This document shows, piece after piece, positions 3,001 through 49,813 of a stretch of DNA of 64,000 bases. This stretch comes from a virus (Duplodnaviria > Caudoviricetes). The position numbers and the translations under genes were made by a program. The stretch's first letter is position 1, and every line of letters starts with the position of its first letter. Below the pieces are notes generated by a model. The model did no database searches, had not been told where the DNA came from, and saw only the letters and a list, made by a program, of their open reading frames with translations. Location of the stretch: positions 1-64,000 of the IMG/VR virus record IMGVR_UViG_3300021387_000796. One strand, 5' to 3'.

Positions 3001-3424
3001 AAGTAATATCTAATTTAATTTTTGGTACTATGATTCTTTTGCCTTTGTATTTCAATTATTGGAAATAAATATGAATAAAGAATATGAAATTTGGCTAAAA
3101 ACTGTAAAAATCGACAATAAACCGATAACGATTTATACGGCAACTTATGAAAATAAGAAAGTTTGTGTTTATTCTATAGATAGCGAAATTTGTATAAATT
3201 GGTATATTAATGGGAAATTAATTGAAATGCCAAAATTTCCTAAAGAAATTATTACAGAAATGGAATTATTTTGTCAGACAATTATTTATAAATGCATAGA
3301 CAAACATTTAATGTACGAAATATTAAATACAATGGAGAAATATTTGCCTTATTTGGAAGATGAAGAAAATCCAATAAGTTCATTAAAATATATAAACATT
3401 GTGGGAGAAATTAAATTTGAATAG
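18..3424 (+). CDS. Cluster of small co-oriented hypothetical phage proteins (18-203, 210-494, 472-936, 950-1393, 1381-1593, 1593-2243, 2221-2850, 3059-3424)
   Basis: Abutting or overlapping ORFs, several with AGGAG/GGAG-type SD sites. No family motif recognised. Confidence 0.7.
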
Positions 3425-4226
3425 TCCGATTAAATATTATGGTGGTAAATCCTACATGACGGATATTATCATTTCTCATTTTCCAAAAGATTATTCTGTT
3501 TATATAGAAGGATTTGGTGGTGGTGCTTCTGTTCTATTTGCAAAAGAACGAGATAAATTGGAAATCTACAATGATTTAGGTGAAAATGTGTATTCTTTGT
3601 TCAAGGTTCTTTCAGACAAGGAACTTTTTGAACAGATGAAAGAAAAGTTGGATTTAACATATTATTCTTCTAATATAAGAAAAGAGTTTATCGAAGATTT
3701 GAAAAGAGATGATTTATCTTTGTTGGATAGAGCATATAAATATTTTTACGTAAATCGTTCAAGTTTTAATGGGATTGGAGGATTTTCGACAACATTACTT
3801 GTTAGAAGAAATATGAGTAAATCAGTTTCAGATTATCTTTCTGCTATAGATGGATTAGCAGAAGTACATAACAGATTAAGTTCTGTAATCATAGAAAACA
3901 GAAATATTTTTGATTTGATTGAAAAATATGACGATAAAAATGTTTTCTTTTATCTTGACCCACCATATGTTCATGATACTAGAAGTAGCGGAACGGAATA
4001 TGAATGTGAAATGTCAGATGAAGAGCATAAAAAATTAATAGATATTATGCTAAATTCAAAAGGAAAGTTTTTGGTTAGTGGTTATGAGCATCCAATTTAT
4101 CAAAAGTTGGTTGATAATGGTTGGAATTTATATAAATATGATTCAGTAAATGCTTGTAATGACAGAACTGAATGCTTATGGTACAATTACAATATTGAAG
4201 AAGGAAATTTGTTTGATGAAATATGA
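3399..4226 (+). CDS. DNA adenine methyltransferase, Dam/D12 class
   Basis: Motifs YYGGKS, EGFGGGASV and YLDPPY. The true start may be the TTG near 3417. Confidence 0.9.
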   Translation: MWEKLNLNSPIKYYGGKSYMTDIIISHFPKDYSVYIEGFGGGASVLFAKERDKLEIYNDLGENVYSLFKVLSDKELFEQMKEKLDLTYYSSNIRKEFIEDLKRDDLSLLDRAYKYFYVNRSSFNGIGGFSTTLLVRRNMSKSVSDYLSAIDGLAEVHNRLSSVIIENRNIFDLIEKYDDKNVFFYLDPPYVHDTRSSGTEYECEMSDEEHKKLIDIMLNSKGKFLVSGYEHPIYQKLVDNGWNLYKYDSVNACNDRTECLWYNYNIEEGNLFDEI

Positions 4227-4385
4227 AGATAAAACTACAAAAGAAGATGAAGAAAATAGAATCATCAGAATTGAAATGACTGCTGAAAATTGGGAAGAAA
4301 ACAAAATGCTTGCCAAGGGAATTGAAATAGATGAACCGCAATATGTAGAATGTGTGATTGATTTGAAAAAAGGAGGAATAAAAAT

Positions 4386-4817
4386 ATGAATGAAGTAAAT
4401 GATGTAAGAAGTTATAACTGCGGAGCATCAGATTACAGTAAACATAAATTTCAATCATGGGATTTTTGGATTTTATTTAGGTTAAATCCTTGGGATGCCG
4501 ATTTGGTAAAAAGAGAATTACGTATTAAAAAAACTGATGGAAGACTTTTAGACTATAAAAAAATGAAACACATTGCACTTGAGCGTATTAGACAGTTTCA
4601 GAATAACGAGAATGTATTTCCTATCGAAAATCTTGAACCAAAAGATATTACTTTAGGTGAAATGCTTGAAGATTATGATTTGACTTCTGATGATGTTGTT
4701 ATTCTGACAAGAATTCTTTATCCGAATGTAAAAGACCGTGTTTCTGATTATGAAGAAATTATTGAAATTTGCAACAAGAGGATTGGAGAGTTGGAAAAGG
4801 AAGAAAAAATAAATTAA
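4386..4817 (+). CDS. DUF3310-like phage protein
   Basis: SYNCGASDYSKH...W..F.LNPWDADLVKR..R.K...DY.K pattern recalled from DUF3310-like phage proteins. Confidence 0.5.
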   Translation: MNEVNDVRSYNCGASDYSKHKFQSWDFWILFRLNPWDADLVKRELRIKKTDGRLLDYKKMKHIALERIRQFQNNENVFPIENLEPKDITLGEMLEDYDLTSDDVVILTRILYPNVKDRVSDYEEIIEICNKRIGELEKEEKIN

Positions 4818-5892: not shown

Positions 5893-6624
5893 ATGTCAGA
5901 TATTAAATTATATAATGAAGATTGCTTAAAGATAATGGGGAGGGTCGCTGATAATTCTATAGACCTTATTTGTAGTGATGTGCCGTATCTTGTAACGAGT
6001 AGAGGAAATAGCGGTAGTATGGGTGGATATGTTACAAGTAAATTGGCAATGAGTGGAAAAATATTTGAAAATAATTCGATTAAACCATCGGATTATCTTC
6101 CGCATTTTTATCGTATTCTGAAAGACAAAACCCATTGTTATATCATGATAAATAATCTTAATTTACAAGAAATGTTAAATGAAGCAACTAAAGTTGGTTT
6201 TCATTTTGTAAAGTGTCTAATTTGGGATAAACAGAATAAAATTTGTGGTCGTTATTATATGAATCAATTTGAATATATTTGTTTGTTCCGTAAAGGTGGT
6301 GACAGACCAATTAATAATTGTGGTACATCAGACATTCTTTCTATTCCAATCAAGAAACTCAAAGATGAAAACGGAAACAATCTACATGATACAGAAAAAC
6401 CGATTGAATTGATGAAAATACTTATAGAAAACTCAACCAATGAAGGTGAAACAGTTTTAGACCCATTTATGGGGATTGGAAGTTGCGGAATAGCAAGTAA
6501 AATGTTGAATAGGAATTTCGTAGGTTGTGAAATAGACCCTAAATATTTTGAGATTGCGAAAAACAGAATTGAAAATAACGGAAATTATGTAGATGACTCT
6601 AAAGAAGATATTTTTGATTTTTAA
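5893..6624 (+). CDS. N4-C/N6-A DNA methyltransferase, beta class
   Basis: SDVPY catalytic motif first, then HDTEKP, LDPFMGIGS and GCEID. Confidence 0.9.
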   Translation: MSDIKLYNEDCLKIMGRVADNSIDLICSDVPYLVTSRGNSGSMGGYVTSKLAMSGKIFENNSIKPSDYLPHFYRILKDKTHCYIMINNLNLQEMLNEATKVGFHFVKCLIWDKQNKICGRYYMNQFEYICLFRKGGDRPINNCGTSDILSIPIKKLKDENGNNLHDTEKPIELMKILIENSTNEGETVLDPFMGIGSCGIASKMLNRNFVGCEIDPKYFEIAKNRIENNGNYVDDSKEDIFDF

Positions 6625-27619: not shown

Positions 27620-28456
27620 ATGATTGATTTTGAAAATATAGATTGTTTTGAGAAAATGAAATCTATGGAAAATAATTCTATAGATTTGATAATGACAGAC
27701 CCTCCTTATGGAATTTCATTTAAAGGTCAAACTTCAAATACAGAATGGGATAATATGACTGATGAAGAATATTCAGATTTTTTATTCCATTTATTTTTTG
27801 AATTTGAAAGGATATTAAAAGATAACGGAACGATTTGGTTATGTTGCGGTAGAACAAAAATTCCAATTGTGTTTGATGTATTAAAAAAGTTTGATAATTT
27901 GAATCTTAATCTTGACAATTGGCTTACTTATGTTAGAGCAAAAGGAAGGGGTTCAAAGAATAAATTGAAAAGTCAATGCGAAGAAGTTTTGCATATTTCA
28001 AAAGGTAAGAATTATAAATGGAATTCTGTTGAATATTTAAGGGAAGTTGTAGTGCCTTATATCAAAGACGGAAAACCTAGAGGGTGGATGATAGACCAAA
28101 ACACAGGTATGCGTGTTCGTTGGAGTGGTGTTGGAAATGCTTTGTTTTTCACCTCACCGTTTTTTAAAAATAAGTTTGAACCGCAAATTCATTCTACACA
28201 AAAACCTTTTCTGTTATGGGTAGAATTGTTGATGATTAGTTCAGATAAAAATGATGTTGTATTTGACCCCTTCAGTGGAAGTTGCTCTAGTGGAATCGCT
28301 TGTTCTGTTTGTGGTAGAAATTATATTGGATGTGAAATTGATAAAGATATGTATGATAAAGCAAATAATTGGTTGAATAATTATGACAAGGAACTTGTTA
28401 AAGAATATGTTGGAAGCAGAATAAGAAGAAATGAAGAAAGTATATTTGATATGTAA
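27620..28456 (+). CDS. N4-C/N6-A DNA methyltransferase, beta class
   Basis: Motifs TDPPY, HSTQKP and FDPFSGSCS. Confidence 0.9.
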   Translation: MIDFENIDCFEKMKSMENNSIDLIMTDPPYGISFKGQTSNTEWDNMTDEEYSDFLFHLFFEFERILKDNGTIWLCCGRTKIPIVFDVLKKFDNLNLNLDNWLTYVRAKGRGSKNKLKSQCEEVLHISKGKNYKWNSVEYLREVVVPYIKDGKPRGWMIDQNTGMRVRWSGVGNALFFTSPFFKNKFEPQIHSTQKPFLLWVELLMISSDKNDVVFDPFSGSCSSGIACSVCGRNYIGCEIDKDMYDKANNWLNNYDKELVKEYVGSRIRRNEESIFDM

Positions 28457-28470
28457 TAGGAAAATAAATT

Positions 28471-29334
28471 ATGAATTTTCAACCAGCGATTAAATGGAGT
28501 GGAAGTAAACGAAGTCAATGTGATGAAATTATTTCATACTTCCCTAGAAAAATAGAAAGTTATTATGAATCTTTTCTTGGTGGTGGTTCTGTGGCATATA
28601 GGCTTATGAATTCCGATATAAAAGTGAATAAGTTTATTTTGTCCGATTTGAATTCGGATTTGATAAATTTATATAAACTCATACAGAATGATTATAAGTC
28701 AATTATTTCTCACTATGAACTTTTATGGAATGAATTAAACAAAGATTCAGATTTTGAAAGAAAGAAATTGTATTTTGCAGAAATAAGAAAAAGATTGAAT
28801 GAAAAACATGACCCTAAAGATTTTATGTTTATAATGCGTACAACCACAAACGGTATGCCAAGATATAATTCTGATGGAGAATTCAACAATTCTTTTCATG
28901 TAACAAGAAATGGAATCGAGCCGTTTAGATTGGAAAAGATATTAAAAGAATGGAATAATACATTGAATAATCATAATGTGGAATTTATAAATGCAAGTTA
29001 TGATACATTCAGTCCGAATGAAAATGATTTTTGTTATTACGACCCACCTTATGCTAACACTAAAGGAATGTATTTTGGTGCAATAAATAATAATAAATTT
29101 TTTAACTTTCTTCAAAATTTAAAATGCTCATATTGTTTTTCATTTGATGGGTATTGTGAAGATGAAGACTCGACTTATGATGTGCCGAAGTCTGTTTATG
29201 ACAAACATGTTTATTTGAAAAACGGAAATTCATCATTTAGAAGGGTTATAGGAAATAAGACTGATGAAATAGTATATGAAAGTTTATATGTAAAAGGTTG
29301 TGAAAAACAAAATGAAAGTTTGTTTGATATGTAA
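28471..29334 (+). CDS. DNA adenine methyltransferase, Dam/D12 class
   Basis: Motifs KWSGSK, ESFLGGGSV and YDPPY. Confidence 0.88.
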   Translation: MNFQPAIKWSGSKRSQCDEIISYFPRKIESYYESFLGGGSVAYRLMNSDIKVNKFILSDLNSDLINLYKLIQNDYKSIISHYELLWNELNKDSDFERKKLYFAEIRKRLNEKHDPKDFMFIMRTTTNGMPRYNSDGEFNNSFHVTRNGIEPFRLEKILKEWNNTLNNHNVEFINASYDTFSPNENDFCYYDPPYANTKGMYFGAINNNKFFNFLQNLKCSYCFSFDGYCEDEDSTYDVPKSVYDKHVYLKNGNSSFRRVIGNKTDEIVYESLYVKGCEKQNESLFDM

Positions 29335-29407: not shown

Positions 29408-31654
29408 ATGAGCGAAACAAATGTAAAGACTGTAAAGAAAATCAAGAAAGTTGTGAGTGAACCGAATTTTATTGGTGTTGATTTCAGTAAATGTAATGAT
29501 GTAGGAACTTGTAATGGGGAAGTTGTAAATATATGTAAAGCCGAATTTGTAGGTATGAGTACAGTAAAAGAAAATTATACCACAAGTCCTAATGCAGTAA
29601 AAAAAGTAAAGAAGATTGTGAAAGATGAATCTACTGTGAAGTCTAATGCTATGAACAATTCTCCTTGCGATTTCAGTGATTTTGAAAGTGGTAAGATTGA
29701 AATACCTAGTTCTGCTAATGTGCCGACTGTGAAAAAGGTGAAGAAGTGCGTGGTAGAAAAAGTAATAGATGATTCGGAAGTTGATTGTAGTAAGCAGATT
29801 GTGTTCACTAGAGTTACGGATTTGAATGCGGATGATTATAAGGATTTTTTTACAAAAGAAAGATTTCCTAGAAATGCCATTTTTTTTGATTTTGAGGTAT
29901 ATAAGTATGATTGGTGTGTTACATTCTACGATGTGATGAATTACAAAAAGACTGTAATTGTAAATCAAAGAAAATCTTTACTTGAATTTTATTATAAAAA
30001 TAAGTCCAATTTGTTTTTTGCATTTAACAATAGAAATTATGATAATTTTATTTTCAAGGGTATTATTTTAGGAATGAATCCTAAAGAAATAAATGATAAA
30101 ATTGTTTATGATGGTCTTAAAGGATTTCAGATTTCAGATAAATTTAAAGATATAGAATTGTATGCTTTCGATTGTTATATTTTGGGGCATAGTCTTAAAC
30201 AATATGAATCATTTTTACAAATGGAAATAAATGAGGACCACACCCCGTTTGATATAAACAGATTGCTTACTAATGATGAATGGACTGAAATTTTAAAATA
30301 TAATGACCATGATGTAAAAAGTTGTATAGAAGTATTTAAGAGAAGTCCATATACTTATGACGCTCATATGGGTTTAATTGAGATGTTTGATTATCTTTCA
30401 TTCAATGAAATTAATAAAACATCAGCGCAAATTGTAGCGGATATTTTGAAATGTAAGAAAGGTACACATGATGATTCTGACCAATGGAATATCGTATGTC
30501 CACCAAATTTGCAAGTAAAAAAATATAAATATGTTATAGATTGGTTTTTGAATCCTCAAAATCATGATTTGAGTAAAAAGGCTGATTTTGAAATTATGGG
30601 ATTAAAACATACAATTGGATGGGGTGGAATTCATGCTTCGGTTGCAAAGGAATATATTGATAATAAAGACGGTGGAATTATAATGCATCTTGATGTCAAT
30701 AGTTACTACCCAAGTCTTGGAATTTTTGCAAAAGTATATCCAGAAGATAAGACTATTTTTGAACTTGCTTTTGGTAAAGAAGGTCATAAAATTTATAAAG
30801 AAATTTATGAAAAACGATTACAATTAAAACGAGAAGGTAAAAAGAAAGAACAAGCACCGTTAAAAATTGTTTTAAACGGAACATATGGTATCCTCCGTGA
30901 TAAAAATTCCAATGCTTATTATCCTAGAGGTGCAACATTAATTTCTGTTTATGGACAGATGTATCTTGTAGACTTAATTGAACATCTCGAAGAAGCAAAG
31001 TGTTGTAGAATTTTGAACTCAAATACAGATGGCTTGCTAGTAAAATGTTTTTCTGAAAAAGATATTGAAACTGTAGAAAGGATTAGACAAGACTGGGAAC
31101 ATAGGAGTTTGATGGGTTTGGCTCGTGACGATATTAACTATGCTTATTTTAAAGATGTCAATAATTATTTGTTTGAATTCGCTAATGGTAAAATCGAAGT
31201 AAAAGGTTCTTATGTAAAAGAGACAAATGATTTGGATAATGATTTACCTATTGTGAATGAATGTATCAGAGAATATATCATGCACAAAATCAATGTTGAA
31301 GAATTTATAAATAATTGTGATGAACTTTGGCGATTTATGAAAACATTCAAGTTGAGTGGTAATTATAAAGAAGTTTATCATAACGGAATAAAATATACCA
31401 ATAAGTGTTATCGTGTATTTGCTAGTAAAGATTTGAAAGATACATATTTAGGTAAAAAGAAAGCGGATAGCGATACTATTGAAAAATTTGCAGGACAATC
31501 AGACCATGTATTTATCGAAAACGGTGATATTCATGATAAAAAATGTTCAGAATATCCAATGCTAGATAAACAATGGTATATAAATTTAATATACGACCGT
31601 CTTGAAGATTTCGGTATAGATGCAAGACCTAGTATGTTTGAGGAATTCTTTTAA
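29408..31654 (+). CDS. DNA polymerase family B with 3'-5' exonuclease
   Basis: Exonuclease motifs FDFE, FNNRNYD and YNDHD. Polymerase motifs DVNSYYPS, KIVLNGTYG and NTDG. Confidence 0.9.
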   Translation: MSETNVKTVKKIKKVVSEPNFIGVDFSKCNDVGTCNGEVVNICKAEFVGMSTVKENYTTSPNAVKKVKKIVKDESTVKSNAMNNSPCDFSDFESGKIEIPSSANVPTVKKVKKCVVEKVIDDSEVDCSKQIVFTRVTDLNADDYKDFFTKERFPRNAIFFDFEVYKYDWCVTFYDVMNYKKTVIVNQRKSLLEFYYKNKSNLFFAFNNRNYDNFIFKGIILGMNPKEINDKIVYDGLKGFQISDKFKDIELYAFDCYILGHSLKQYESFLQMEINEDHTPFDINRLLTNDEWTEILKYNDHDVKSCIEVFKRSPYTYDAHMGLIEMFDYLSFNEINKTSAQIVADILKCKKGTHDDSDQWNIVCPPNLQVKKYKYVIDWFLNPQNHDLSKKADFEIMGLKHTIGWGGIHASVAKEYIDNKDGGIIMHLDVNSYYPSLGIFAKVYPEDKTIFELAFGKEGHKIYKEIYEKRLQLKREGKKKEQAPLKIVLNGTYGILRDKNSNAYYPRGATLISVYGQMYLVDLIEHLEEAKCCRILNSNTDGLLVKCFSEKDIETVERIRQDWEHRSLMGLARDDINYAYFKDVNNYLFEFANGKIEVKGSYVKETNDLDNDLPIVNECIREYIMHKINVEEFINNCDELWRFMKTFKLSGNYKEVYHNGIKYTNKCYRVFASKDLKDTYLGKKKADSDTIEKFAGQSDHVFIENGDIHDKKCSEYPMLDKQWYINLIYDRLEDFGIDARPSMFEEFF

Positions 31655-31754
31655 TTAGAGATTTTATGCAGTTAAGGGGATAAATTTACCAAAAATCGAC
31701 AAATTTACCCCTTTAACTACGGATTTTATGAAATTAAGAATTTTTGAGGAATGT

Positions 31755-32492
31755 ATGACAGAAACATTATATAAAGGCGATTGTCTTATTGAGATGAATA
31801 AAATTGCTGATAAATCGGTGGATATGATTTTGTGTGATTTACCGTATGGAACGACTGCTTGTTCTTGGGATGTTATTATTCCATTTGATAAATTATGGGA
31901 ACAATATAATCGAATTATAAAACCAAATTGTGCGATTGTTTTGTTTGGTTCACAACCTTTTATTACAAAATTGATTAATAGCAACATTGATAATTATAAA
32001 TATTCTTGGTATTGGATAAAAAATCAAGGTACGAATTTTTTTCATGCAAAACATATGCCTATAAGAAAAGTGGAAGAAATAGCAGTATTTAATGATTATT
32101 TAACTTACAACGCCATCAAATCTAAAGGACACGAACCTACTAGGTCTGCTAAAAATTGTTCTAACGGAAAATGTTATTTTGGAAAAAATAAAAGAAATTA
32201 TATAGGTGGTAGCACAGAAAGATTCCCAACCGATGTGTTAGAATTTAAATGTGTGAATAATTATGAAAGAAATCATCCTAATCAAAAACCTACAGACCTT
32301 TTGGAATATTTGATAAAAACTTATACTTTTGAAAATGAAACAGTTTTGGACAATTGTATGGGAAGTGGTTCAACAGGAGTTGCTTGCATAAATACCAACC
32401 GTAATTTCATTGGAATAGAAAAAGATGATACATATTTTGAGATTGCCAAAAATAGAATAGAAAAGGCGAAAGAAAGTTTGTTCGACATGTAG
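31755..32492 (+). CDS. N4-C/N6-A DNA methyltransferase, beta class
   Basis: Motifs CDLPYG, HPNQKP and LDNCMGSGSTG. ATG 31755 follows GAGGA. Confidence 0.9.
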   Translation: MTETLYKGDCLIEMNKIADKSVDMILCDLPYGTTACSWDVIIPFDKLWEQYNRIIKPNCAIVLFGSQPFITKLINSNIDNYKYSWYWIKNQGTNFFHAKHMPIRKVEEIAVFNDYLTYNAIKSKGHEPTRSAKNCSNGKCYFGKNKRNYIGGSTERFPTDVLEFKCVNNYERNHPNQKPTDLLEYLIKTYTFENETVLDNCMGSGSTGVACINTNRNFIGIEKDDTYFEIAKNRIEKAKESLFDM

Positions 32493-46495: not shown

Positions 46496-46957
46496 AACTA
46501 TCTTATATAAACATTAACTATTTATATCAGTATTGCAGATATGATAATTATGTAAAAATTTTAGGTGAATATATTGTAGACCTAAACTTTGATAAATTAT
46601 ATTAATAGGATGGTGAATTATGAATAATTTAGAAATAGCACAAAGTAAATTAAAATATTCAGACCATGAATTTTTTATTAAAGACAATAATGAAGATTTT
46701 AAATATTGGAATCAGTTATATCTTTCTTTGACTCAACTAGATAATTTGGAAGATATTATTTTTACAGTAAGACGTGCTGATTGTGGAGGAGTTATTCAAA
46801 TTGATAAAAACAAACTCTCTATTAGAGTAGATGCTGATAAAGGTAAGTTGCCTTTGTTTTGGATAGAATATGATATAATTAATGATATTATAATTTTCTT
46901 TTAATGAATGGAAATTTTTCAATTTAGTATTGTTTTATTCTTTCCTTTAATGATATA

Positions 46958-47776
46958 TTGAAGGAAAGAATTTTTTATAAATGTAGGAATAATATGGGAA
47001 TTTTAAAACCGTTTTCAGAAGTAAAATGTGATAAATGCGATTCAAATGGATTCATCGTTGGTGAGAGTTCAGCAGTGAAATGTTCATGTAGAATGAAATA
47101 TGAATATGAACTCAAAGCGAGTAATATTCTTTCCAAAAGCGGATTACTTGATGAAAACTCTACTTATGAAGATTTCAAGAAACTGATTGATTTTGATTGG
47201 TCTGATTATCGTGGAAAAGATGAAAACGGAAATCTGAAAAAGTTACAGAAATATGTAGAAGAATTTGATTCAGATAAAAAACCTTTTAAGCATTTACACT
47301 GTTATGTATGGGGTGGGCAAGGTACACAAAAGTCATACACTACAAAAGGTGTTTTGACAAAGTTGGCAATCAAGGGAAAATCAGTTTATTACATTTTCGC
47401 TAAAGATTTGATTTCTTTACTTCATGATTCTGAACGAGATGAAGAATTGAAAAAGAAGTTAGATTACATTAAAAATGTTGATGTTTTGGTAATTGATGAA
47501 TTCGAGGAACAAAGATGTTGTTTATGGCAGAGCGGATACAAGGAACGTTTGCTTATTGTTTGGTTGAAAGAACGTCTTGAAGTTGTCAGAAAGTCAACAT
47601 GGTTTATTTCAAACGATTCTATGGAGGAACAGAAAGAAAGTAAATTTGGAGAATTATTTGGTGACATGCTTGACAGGGAGACGAAATTCGGAAGATTTGA
47701 ATTTAAAGACAAGTATTCAGATTATATCACCAAGGAAGAAATAGAAGAAACCATGAAAAATATTTGGGATGATTAA
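46958..47776 (+). CDS. DnaC/IstB-like ATPase (helicase loader)
   Basis: CxxC..CxC zinc site, WGGQGTQKS Walker A and LVIDE Walker B. Start is likely ATG 46994. Confidence 0.75.
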   Translation: MKERIFYKCRNNMGILKPFSEVKCDKCDSNGFIVGESSAVKCSCRMKYEYELKASNILSKSGLLDENSTYEDFKKLIDFDWSDYRGKDENGNLKKLQKYVEEFDSDKKPFKHLHCYVWGGQGTQKSYTTKGVLTKLAIKGKSVYYIFAKDLISLLHDSERDEELKKKLDYIKNVDVLVIDEFEEQRCCLWQSGYKERLLIVWLKERLEVVRKSTWFISNDSMEEQKESKFGELFGDMLDRETKFGRFEFKDKYSDYITKEEIEETMKNIWDD

Positions 47777-47788
47777 GAGGTTATAAAA

Positions 47789-48458
47789 ATGTCAGATATT
47801 AAATTATATAACGATGATTGTATTAAATTTATGGGGGGGGGTGAAGGATAAATCTATTGATTTTATTTGCACAGACATTCCTTATGATGAAGTTAATCGA
47901 AAATCGCAAGGGTTGAGAAAATTAGATAAAACAAATGCTGATGTTTGTACATTTGATTTAGATGAGTTTTTGATTCAATGTTATAGAGTGTGTAAAGGTA
48001 GCATTTGTATATTTTGTGGAATGAAACAATTTTCAAAAATATATGATTTCTTTTCACAAAAAGAAGGAACTGTTAGATGTATTGTTTGGAAAAAAACGAA
48101 TCCTTCTCCTATGAACGGTCAACATATTTATTTAAGCGGTGCAGAACTTTGTGTTTGGTTTAAGCCTAAAGGTTGGAAAACATTTAATGCATTTTGTAAA
48201 TCAAATGTTTTTGAATATCCTTGTGGTGGAAGTAAAGTACATCCTACACAAAAAAATTTAAAATTGATAACTGAATTAATTGAAAATAATACAAATAAAG
48301 GAGATTTAATTTTGGATACTTGTATGGGAAGTGGAACTTGTGGAATTGCTTGTGCGAATACAAATAGAAACTTTATTGGAGTTGAATTAGACGAAAATTA
48401 TTACAATATTGCTAAGAAACGAATAGAAGAAAGCAATACTAATTTGTTTGATTTGTAA
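47789..48458 (+). CDS. Beta-class DNA methyltransferase frameshifted at a G9 tract (47833-47841)
   Basis: MSDIKLYNDDCIKFM then G9 and a stop. With G8 the frame joins VKDKSIDFICTDIPY...HPTQK...LDTCMGSG. Confidence 0.85.
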
Positions 48459-48469
48459 AAGGAGAAAAT

Positions 48470-49249
48470 ATGGTATATCAAGGTAGTAAAGCGAAACTAA
48501 GAAAATACATTTTACCGATTTTGCAAAATTGTATAAATGAAAATCATATTGAAAATTATTATGAACCATTCTGCGGAGGTGCAAATATGATAGACCATAT
48601 CCAATGCAAAAATAGAATTGGTTCAGATATAAATTCAGAATTGATTGAACTCTTAAAATATATGAGAGATAATCCTAATCTCGATATCTTTCCTCAAGAT
48701 TGTTCTTTTGAACATTATTCTGATGTAAGAGAAAACAGAAAGAATAAAACAAATAAATATTCTATTCCTTATACAAGCGGAATTGGATATTTTGCTAGTT
48801 TTGGCGGAAGATATTTCGATGGTGGTTATGGAAAAGACCCTAGCGGTAAAAGAAATATTTATCATGAGAGATTAGAATACGCAAAAGAACAAGCATCCTT
48901 ATTGAAAGGAATAGAATTTGGTATACATTCTTTTGAAGATTATGACCCTAATTATTTTAATCAATGTTTGTTTTATTTAGACCCACCGTACAGAGATACA
49001 AAAATTTATAATGGTAAAGATGGATTTCCTTATGATTTATTTTATGATTGGTGTAAAAAATTAGGAAAGAACAACTATGTTTTTATTTCTGAATATTATA
49101 TGCCTTCCGACTTTAAATGTATTTGGAGTAAAGAAAGAAAAATAATGCAAAAATCAGATAGAGAAAAAGGTGAAGTTGCAGTTGAAAAATTATTCACAGT
49201 TGGAAAATCAAGTAACAATAATTTGGAAAAAGGTTTGTTTGACTTGTAA
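48470..49249 (+). CDS. DNA adenine methyltransferase, Dam/D12-like
   Basis: Motifs YQGSK, EPFCGGAN and YLDPPY. Confidence 0.85.
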   Translation: MVYQGSKAKLRKYILPILQNCINENHIENYYEPFCGGANMIDHIQCKNRIGSDINSELIELLKYMRDNPNLDIFPQDCSFEHYSDVRENRKNKTNKYSIPYTSGIGYFASFGGRYFDGGYGKDPSGKRNIYHERLEYAKEQASLLKGIEFGIHSFEDYDPNYFNQCLFYLDPPYRDTKIYNGKDGFPYDLFYDWCKKLGKNNYVFISEYYMPSDFKCIWSKERKIMQKSDREKGEVAVEKLFTVGKSSNNNLEKGLFDL

Positions 49250-49369
49250 GGAAATTGTATGAATCACGATGTTTTGATTATTTTAATTTTATTATTGACT
49301 TCTTTCGGATTGGGTTATATTTTTGGTAAATCTAAAAAGAAATAGATTATATTTATATGGAGGAAATAT

Positions 49370-49813
49370 ATGATTAAATTTCATGAAGTAATTGAACCTA
49401 TGCAGAAAGTTGAAGGAGAAACTTCTCTACCTAGACGTGCTACAAAAGGTAGCGGTGCGTATGACTTTTATGCAAAGACAAATTACACAGTAAAGCCAAA
49501 TGAAATTGTAAAGATTTGGACTGATGTTTGTGCTGAAATGGATGAAGATAAAGTGTTACTTATAAACATTCGTTCTTCCATGGGTTCGACTTGGAATCTT
49601 ATCAATGAGCAAGGTTGGGTGGATAGTGACTATATCAATGCCACAAACGGGGGCAATATAGGCATTTTCTTACAGAATAAAACTAATGAAGTTCAGACGA
49701 TTAATAAGGGTGATAGAATTGGACAAGGTATGTTTGTTTCTTATTTTACTACTGTTGATGATGAACCTATCAGCGAAGAACGTACTGGCGGATATGGAAG
49801 TACAGGAAAATAA
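49370..49813 (+). CDS. dut: Trimeric dUTPase
   Basis: Motifs GSGAYD, RSS, GWVDSDY, GDRIGQ and RTGGYGSTG. Confidence 0.93.
   Translation: MIKFHEVIEPMQKVEGETSLPRRATKGSGAYDFYAKTNYTVKPNEIVKIWTDVCAEMDEDKVLLINIRSSMGSTWNLINEQGWVDSDYINATNGGNIGIFLQNKTNEVQTINKGDRIGQGMFVSYFTTVDDEPISEERTGGYGSTGK

Follow-up and report, generated by a model that had tools for sequence, protein, structure and literature searches.

A poly-G tract as a probable ON/OFF switch of a DNA methyltransferase gene in an uncultured jumbo phage, with two further tracts in methyltransferase genes of the same genome

A run of G's near the start of a predicted DNA methyltransferase gene (MTase 1) of an uncultured phage is very likely a contingency locus, at which slippage switches the methyltransferase ON and OFF, and the genome would have three switches of this kind in all. 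The window analyzed here, a stretch of 64,000 nucleotides, is the initial 64 kb of a 218,066-bp IMG/VR virus genome with a CheckV completeness of 92%. Slipped-strand phase variation at the tract of MTase 1 is well supported by the comparison of independent contigs, from which we infer the slippage mechanism, the loss of activity in the OFF forms and the selective reason for switching.

Results

MTase 1 opens at ATG 47789 on the plus strand, 8 nt downstream of a Shine-Dalgarno sequence (AAGAGG, 47774-47779), and its frame runs through 14 codons into ATG GGG GGG GGT GAA GGA TAA, leaving at the G9 tract of the window (47833-47841) a 20-codon ORF (47789-47851) that ends at TAA 47849-47851. With one G fewer (G8, the in-frame length), the frame reaches 48458 and encodes a 222-aa protein, which is present letter for letter in public assemblies (P0121). 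The body of the gene (47841-48458) is open from the GTG made by the last G of the tract. The sequence-only reading had stated that G9 puts the methyltransferase out of frame and G8 restores it, in a very AT-rich genome, and both statements were confirmed, the former by this direct reading of the frame and the latter by a GC content of ~29%.

The ON protein matched PF01555 (N6_N4_Mtase) at 4.9e-29 and 102.3 bits, against a curated cut-off of 26.7, and phrog_67 at 1.5e-52. The closest solved structure was that of M1.HpyAVI "DpnA" (PDB 5HEK/5HFJ; E 2.9e-27, residues 6-212), which has the same fold family and motif order but comes from a bacterial restriction-modification system. Motif IV (TDIPY, residues 28-32) precedes motif I (CMGSGT, residues 178-183), and D29, P31, Y32, G180 and G182 are invariant among 30 homologs. 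MTase 1 is thus predicted to be a beta-class (DpnA/M1.HpyAVI-like) DNA adenine/cytosine-N methyltransferase. It adjoins a D12-class (Dam/DpnM-like) methyltransferase gene (48470-49249, plus strand; PF02086, 1.5e-12), in which the motif I glycines are encoded by GGA GGT (48575-48580) and are tract-free. The neighboring genes encode a DnaC/IstB-like ATPase, this D12 methyltransferase and a dUTPase, and no restriction or specificity subunit was found among them. A promoter and terminator scan of 46700-49500 gave no signal beyond that of shuffled sequence, and none that could be linked to the tract. MTase 1 (48440-48458), the neighboring D12 methyltransferase (49232-49249) and a paralog of MTase 1 described below (6607-6624) end in L/I-F-D-L/F tails, and many homologs in the alignment (A1) have C-terminal tails of the Q-x-x-L-F type, such as QPSLF; these tails resemble sliding-clamp-binding peptides in their sequence.

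To place the tract in the protein, an AlphaFold2 model was built from 30 homologs (mean pLDDT of 80.9, and 90-94 for residues 1-30). In this model, a strand (residues 4-7) and a helix (residues 11-16) precede the tract, and Gly16-Gly17 lie in the loop to the strand of residues 23-29 and motif IV. In the 30-homolog alignment, Cys11 is invariant and positions 16-17 are variable. The tract thus encodes a variable, tolerant loop, in which in-frame length changes should be tolerated. A frameshift there removes the ribosome-binding site, the start codon, the first 15-17 residues and a conserved structural element. The downstream frame stays long in the OFF states and can be restarted at a GTG that overlaps the stop codon as GTGA (G7/G10) or at ATG 47814 (G9), and OFF may therefore be leaky or yield a truncated enzyme. 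Because these restarts, ATG 47814 and GTG 47841, are without a Shine-Dalgarno sequence comparable to that of ATG 47789, a truncated active enzyme is a minor possibility.

The genome carries genes for its own DNA polymerase, a tail sheath and a Dda-like helicase, indicating a contractile-tailed jumbo phage. Related contigs came from pig-gut and other gut metagenomes. A megablast of 47000-49500 against GenBank phages gave no match, indicating no cultured relative there, and the sole hint of a host is one homolog with 62% identity that carries the label of a Clostridia MAG. At least 12 methyltransferase genes (five N6_N4, four D12 and three phrog_799-like) occupy 4.2% of the sequence, and a search of the whole genome for C5 methyltransferases (PF00145) found none. 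Those in the window without a tract include, all on the plus strand, a D12-class gene at 3399-4226, a pair at 27620-29334 (N6_N4 at 27620-28456, then D12 at 28471-29334) directly 5' of the DNA polymerase gene, and an N6_N4 gene at 31728-32492, a relative of which in contig L036 has G9 at the equivalent M-G-G-V position. The DNA polymerase gene (29408-31654) is accordingly flanked by the N6_N4 and D12 pair upstream and by N6_N4 downstream. A beta-class gene also stands next to a D12-class gene at 47789/48470 and at genome positions 109231/110176. This arrangement echoes the DpnA/DpnM pairing, here without a nuclease.

A census of G/C runs in the whole genome gave 14 of length 5, two of length 6, none of length 7 or 8, and three of length 9, compared with 0.023 runs of at least 9 expected under a first-order Markov model. 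The G9 at 47833 is the sole G/C run of at least 7 in the window, where 0.33 are expected, and GGG makes up 5.2% of glycine codons. Each of the three G9 runs lies inside the first 40 codons of a different DNA methyltransferase gene: MTase 1 (47789-48458, N6_N4), for which G9 is OFF and G8 is ON; a second, D12-class gene at genome positions 109231-110148, in which the tract at 109332 encodes glycines of the SAM-binding motif I and G9 is ON; and a third gene on the minus strand at genome positions ~155436-155975 (phrog_799 DNA methyltransferase, 1.1e-30) with its tract at 155906, for which G9 is OFF and G8 is ON. The location of all three tracts in genes that cover 4.2% of the genome has a probability of ~8e-5. 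The poly-G switch that had been read from the sequence was therefore borne out as far as it went; one switch had been recognized, whereas two more occur in the genome, likewise in methyltransferase genes.

A/T runs in the genome reach 9-10 nt, with 12 of length 9 and two of length 10. AT precedes five of the six long G runs of this genome and of a 160-kb relative (G003), at genome positions 47831, 109330 and 155916 (minus strand) and at G003 loci that include L041 and L048, and GT precedes the sixth. For the tracts of this genome, as well as for the paralog and two orthologs, the preceding AT lies within a Met codon that is followed by Gly-Gly. Either common descent of a switch module or a sequence bias in where tracts arise might account for this context.

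Tract length was then compared among 13 independent contigs, including the window, that were gathered by a pattern scan of metagenome DNA and from a 90%-identity protein cluster, so that the lengths are states in assembled contigs. Their source samples include SRR873595, SRR873602, SRR33674992, SRR25030130, SRR30476286, the runs behind ERZ1756110, ERZ12302813 and ERZ12302820, and JGI Ga0247609. The 50 nt on the 5' side of the tract and the 12 nt on its 3' side were the same in all 13, apart from single synonymous changes. The tract was G6 in L056 (OFF), G7 in L007, L036 and L037 (OFF), G8 in L053, L054 and L055 from three samples (ON), G9 in the window and L034 (OFF), and G10 in L035 (OFF); it was interrupted as G-A-G6 in L051 and L052 (ON), and as G-A-G7 in L057 (OFF). 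OFF alleles were thus carried by 8 of the 13 contigs, and the 90% protein cluster of MTase 1 contained, besides ON forms of 222 aa, truncated OFF forms of two kinds. The conservation of the tract in homologs, which had been set as a check on the switch, turned out to be conservation with variation, the tract ranging from G6 to G10 in near-identical contigs, both ON and OFF. Because the lengths differ among 13 contigs, an invariant G8 combined with assembly error is excluded as an account of the tract. An early interpretation, drawn from the first six contigs with 7, 9 or 10 G's, that G8 is never used and the gene is recoded instead, was dropped when the G8 alleles were found in the three samples.

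In a MAFFT alignment of 1700 flanking bases, four substitutions and no indels separated the window from L053, and the tract was G9 in the former and G8 in the latter. L034 (G9) and L035 (G10) came from one metagenome, share a stretch of 136 identical bases that spans the tract, and each terminate next to it, as is expected of an assembler at a length-polymorphic site; this pair hints at switching within a population, but the two could be co-existing strains. Two A7 runs within MTase 1 served as a control, and both stay at 7 in all 10 close contigs. Contig pairs with identical flanks (L007/L037 and L051/L052) had equal tract states, indicating that the consensus state is stable over short divergence, and the state changes between genomes differing at 0.2-0.4% of flanking sites. 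Taken together, these two observations give a rough rate of change about a thousand-fold the per-site substitution rate.

The gene body of MTase 1 is under purifying selection despite the frequent OFF alleles. Between lineages, dN/dS was 0.07-0.10 for ON and OFF alleles alike (Nei-Gojobori method, 205 codons 3' of the tract), and close OFF alleles had no second lesion. Past purifying selection of this kind indicates that OFF states are short-lived in evolutionary terms. That OFF alleles predominate is also compatible with a relaxed need for the enzymes, or with enzymes that are costly or often unnecessary.

A paralogous beta-class methyltransferase of 243 aa is encoded intact at 5893-6624 on the plus strand (PF01555, 1.2e-29), and has, at the same two codons as the tract of MTase 1, an interrupted tract of 8 nt, GGGG-A-GGG, that is in frame (5937-5944). 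The first 23 nt of the two genes are identical, and their proteins share 34% identity overall and near-identical first 32 residues. That this paralog has a near-identical N-terminus and an A-interrupted tract at the same codons had been read from the sequence, and it was upheld by reading and alignment. In the 244-member cluster of this gene, the two tract codons encode GG, GR (as in the window), RG, EG, GE, ER or SK, with readings at the site that include MEGV, MGEV, MRGV and MERV, and all of these variant residues, SK excepted, are each one G-to-A step away from GGG. Furthermore, orthologs carry a pure G8 (ON) in L058-L060 and G7 (OFF) in L061, a 233-aa member, indicating that the window copy is an interrupted, stabilized ON allele of a poly-G switch. 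The description of this paralog as locked ON was therefore justified by the G8 and G7 alleles of the orthologs and by the other single G-to-A interruptions. Locking is also seen elsewhere, in the G-A-G6 allele of MTase 1 in a 225-kb relative and as GG-A-G5 in the third gene. For the third gene, the 10 listed pure-tract forms (G6, G7 and G9) are all OFF, seven of them confirmed in DNA, and one allele, P0157, is interrupted and out of frame, i.e., locked OFF.

Tracts were also found in four further methyltransferase genes among relatives. The relative G003 has exactly three runs of at least 7, all of them in methyltransferase genes: a G9 (OFF) in the ortholog of the third gene, a G10 (OFF, whereas G9 would be ON) in motif I of the ortholog (L044) of the D12 gene at 48470, and a G9 (ON) in an SPPY-type N6_N4 gene. 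The third methyltransferase thus has G9, one G too many, in two diverged phages. In L036, the G9 at the M-G-G-V position belongs to a fourth beta-class methyltransferase, the counterparts of which in this genome are tract-free, and in an ortholog of the second gene (L062) M-G-G-G-S is kept with non-repetitive codons.

The methyltransferase at L071:4001-4666 is a chimera, in which the first ~75 nt, including a G8, are of the L036 type (LCDLPYGTT) and the remainder shares at least 90% identity with MTase 1; its gene neighborhood differs. This indicates that the tract-bearing 5' module moves between non-orthologous genes. The divergent contig L036 carries the same 5' module with G7 at 3845-4700, in a methyltransferase with a different central region, and this copy has a second frame change beside a C5 run (~L036:4131); it may be a true pseudogene or bear a second, shorter switch. 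In two unrelated phages with homologous methyltransferases, no such runs were found. An unrelated 137-kb phage that shares a methyltransferase homolog (G002) has a G7 run at L031:1501-1507 in minus-strand coding sequence that is not obviously a methyltransferase, and it was rejected as the same kind of switch because the ATG-poly-G context is absent. Searches of IMG/VR with the DNA pattern of the second tract and with that of the shared 5' module gave no matches, and a search of 185,579 species genomes with the 5' module pattern gave five chance matches in genomes of 55-63% GC, none of them in a methyltransferase, and no lead to a host or prophage.

Discussion

Orphan phage methyltransferases shield phage DNA from classical restriction, yet they make targets for methyl-directed nucleases. 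In the mechanism that we propose, slipped-strand mispairing while the DNA is copied, probably by the polymerase of the phage itself, would gain or lose single G's, and each change of length would move MTase 1 among the ON frame (G8) and two OFF frames (G7/G10 and G6/G9), with the gene of the window in the OFF state. Three such switches in different methyltransferase genes could give burst progeny with differing active methylases and methylation patterns. Since every long G run lies in a methyltransferase gene, the phage probably varies the protective DNA marks among its progeny. Switching is likely selected because methylation guards against classical restriction while exposing the DNA to methyl-directed (type IV or DpnI-like) nucleases, or because methylation is costly; by analogy with agt of T2, discussed below, the phage may in this way hedge between classical and methyl-directed restriction.

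Homopolymers are classic error sites and the window is a metagenome-assembled record, so that a gene that is always G8, with its ninth G miscalled, had to be considered. An error would hardly produce what was found across different assemblers and samples, namely five pure lengths (6-10) and two interrupted forms rather than mostly G8 with a few exceptions, a second assembly with G9 (L034), constant A7 runs in the same gene and no other indel between the window and L053 in 1700 nt, and the tract-length classes agree with distinct gene calls in public protein sets; we thus consider this explanation scarcely credible. If the variation is genuine, full-length enzyme might still be made from a fixed slippery site by programmed ribosomal frameshifting or RNA-polymerase slippage. 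Transcriptional slippage can arise at long homopolymers, a stop codon lies directly 3' of the run at G7/G10, and the G9 of the third methyltransferase in two diverged phages would suit such a site. Sites of this kind keep their length, however, whereas lengths of 6 to 10 occur here and alleles that are in frame (G8, G-A-G6 and GG-A-G5) are common, which makes a fixed recoding site unlikely. The OFF alleles also differ, so that shifts in opposite directions would be needed. We therefore regard recoding as very improbable.

Neutral decay would also produce a majority of OFF alleles, if the methyltransferases are dispensable and the tract is a mutational hotspot of gene loss without adaptive switching. 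The locked-OFF P0157 allele of the third gene and the second frameshift of the L036 copy fit decay, and redundancy is plausible in a phage with so many methyltransferases. The low dN/dS across ON and OFF alleles and the lack of extra lesions in close OFF alleles speak against it, as does the confinement of long G runs to methyltransferase genes in two genomes (this one and G003). Moreover, a rare-codon G9 should erode at 29% GC, yet it persists at ~13% (L054) and ~26% (L036) divergence of the 1.7-kb flanks, and decay is thus an unlikely explanation. A switch between isoforms, in which the out-of-frame lengths still give an N-terminally truncated or altered active enzyme from the GTG at G7/G10 or from ATG 47814 at G9, as forms of 205 and 214 aa, appears to be distinctly improbable. 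Beyond the tract the reading frame remains open in every case, both candidate restarts exist (the GTG within GTGA and the in-frame ATG 5' of the tract), and gene callers annotate truncated forms. The segment that such forms would lack is nevertheless a confidently folded strand and helix that includes Cys11, the one N-terminal residue without variation among the homologs, and has an ordered counterpart at the N-terminus of 5HEK; the alternative starts have no Shine-Dalgarno sequence. Compared with these four explanations, ON/OFF switching of MTase 1 by slippage at the G run is the reading that we prefer.

Phase-variable methyltransferases are a textbook matter in bacterial pathogens. The bacterial genes controlled by simple sequence repeats, such as the Type III mod genes of Haemophilus, Neisseria, Helicobacter and Moraxella and the poly-G-controlled, phase-variable Type IIG enzyme cj0031 of Campylobacter jejuni (PMC4889913), resemble MTase 1 in having a homopolymer in the 5' coding region, frame switching by 1 nt, and ON and OFF alleles among close relatives. 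In contrast, the genes described here are orphans of a lytic-type jumbo phage with no adjoining restriction partner, and several unrelated methyltransferase families carry tracts in one genome. Bacterial phasevarions control a cellular regulon from a Type I or III restriction-modification locus; MTase 1 lies in no such locus, and its role is likely the protection of phage DNA.

Among phages, the closest parallel is the A-tract of agt in T2, where reversible frameshifts hedge between TgvAB, which attacks modified DNA, and McrA/BC, which attack unmodified DNA (Gomez, Barrick and Waters, bioRxiv 10.1101/2025.10.21.683753). As here, the homopolymer lies in a phage DNA-modification gene, and the same hedging logic is proposed. 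The T2 case concerns A runs in a glucosyltransferase gene of a cultured phage with measured reversion rates, whereas ours is an uncultured phage known from sequence, in which runs of G9 are strongly over-represented and restricted to methyltransferase genes. In Campylobacter Fletchervirus phages, hypermutable poly-G tracts are reported to lie in receptor-binding protein genes (Sorensen et al. 2021, Cell Rep 35:109214); these G7-G11 tracts, in an AT-rich phage genome and with subpopulations, are like those described here, but they alter host recognition, whereas ours affect genes for DNA methylation. For Bordetella phage BPP-1, a temperate podovirus, a poly-G tract was reported in its methylase gene (Liu et al. 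2004, J Bacteriol 186:1503) and, according to a preprint that cites this work, was not followed further; as here, the tract lies in a phage methylase gene, but only a single gene is concerned. Our literature search found no paper on several poly-G-switched methyltransferases per phage, on locked alleles or on a mobile switch module.

More broadly, a clade of uncultured gut jumbo phages may possess at least seven tract-switched methyltransferase genes, a portable, recombining 5' module that extends from the start codon to M-G-G-V, repeated locking by G-to-A changes, and combinatorial methylomes that hedge against restriction. We put this wider picture forward tentatively, as a possibility that is rather less probable than the switch at MTase 1 itself.

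Annotators should note that an apparent frameshift at a G run in a phage methylase gene often marks a switch and not an error or a pseudogene. An experimental case of a phage contingency locus has been provided only recently, by agt of T2 in a 2025 preprint (bioRxiv 10.1101/2025.10.21.683753). The tracts described here are confined to methyltransferase genes, vary in length, and have been locked, unlocked and swapped, a pattern to be expected where selection acts on mutability itself. These phages would offer a natural system in which it can be tested whether phages hedge their bets with epigenetic armor against the methylation-sensitive and methylation-dependent defenses of the gut.
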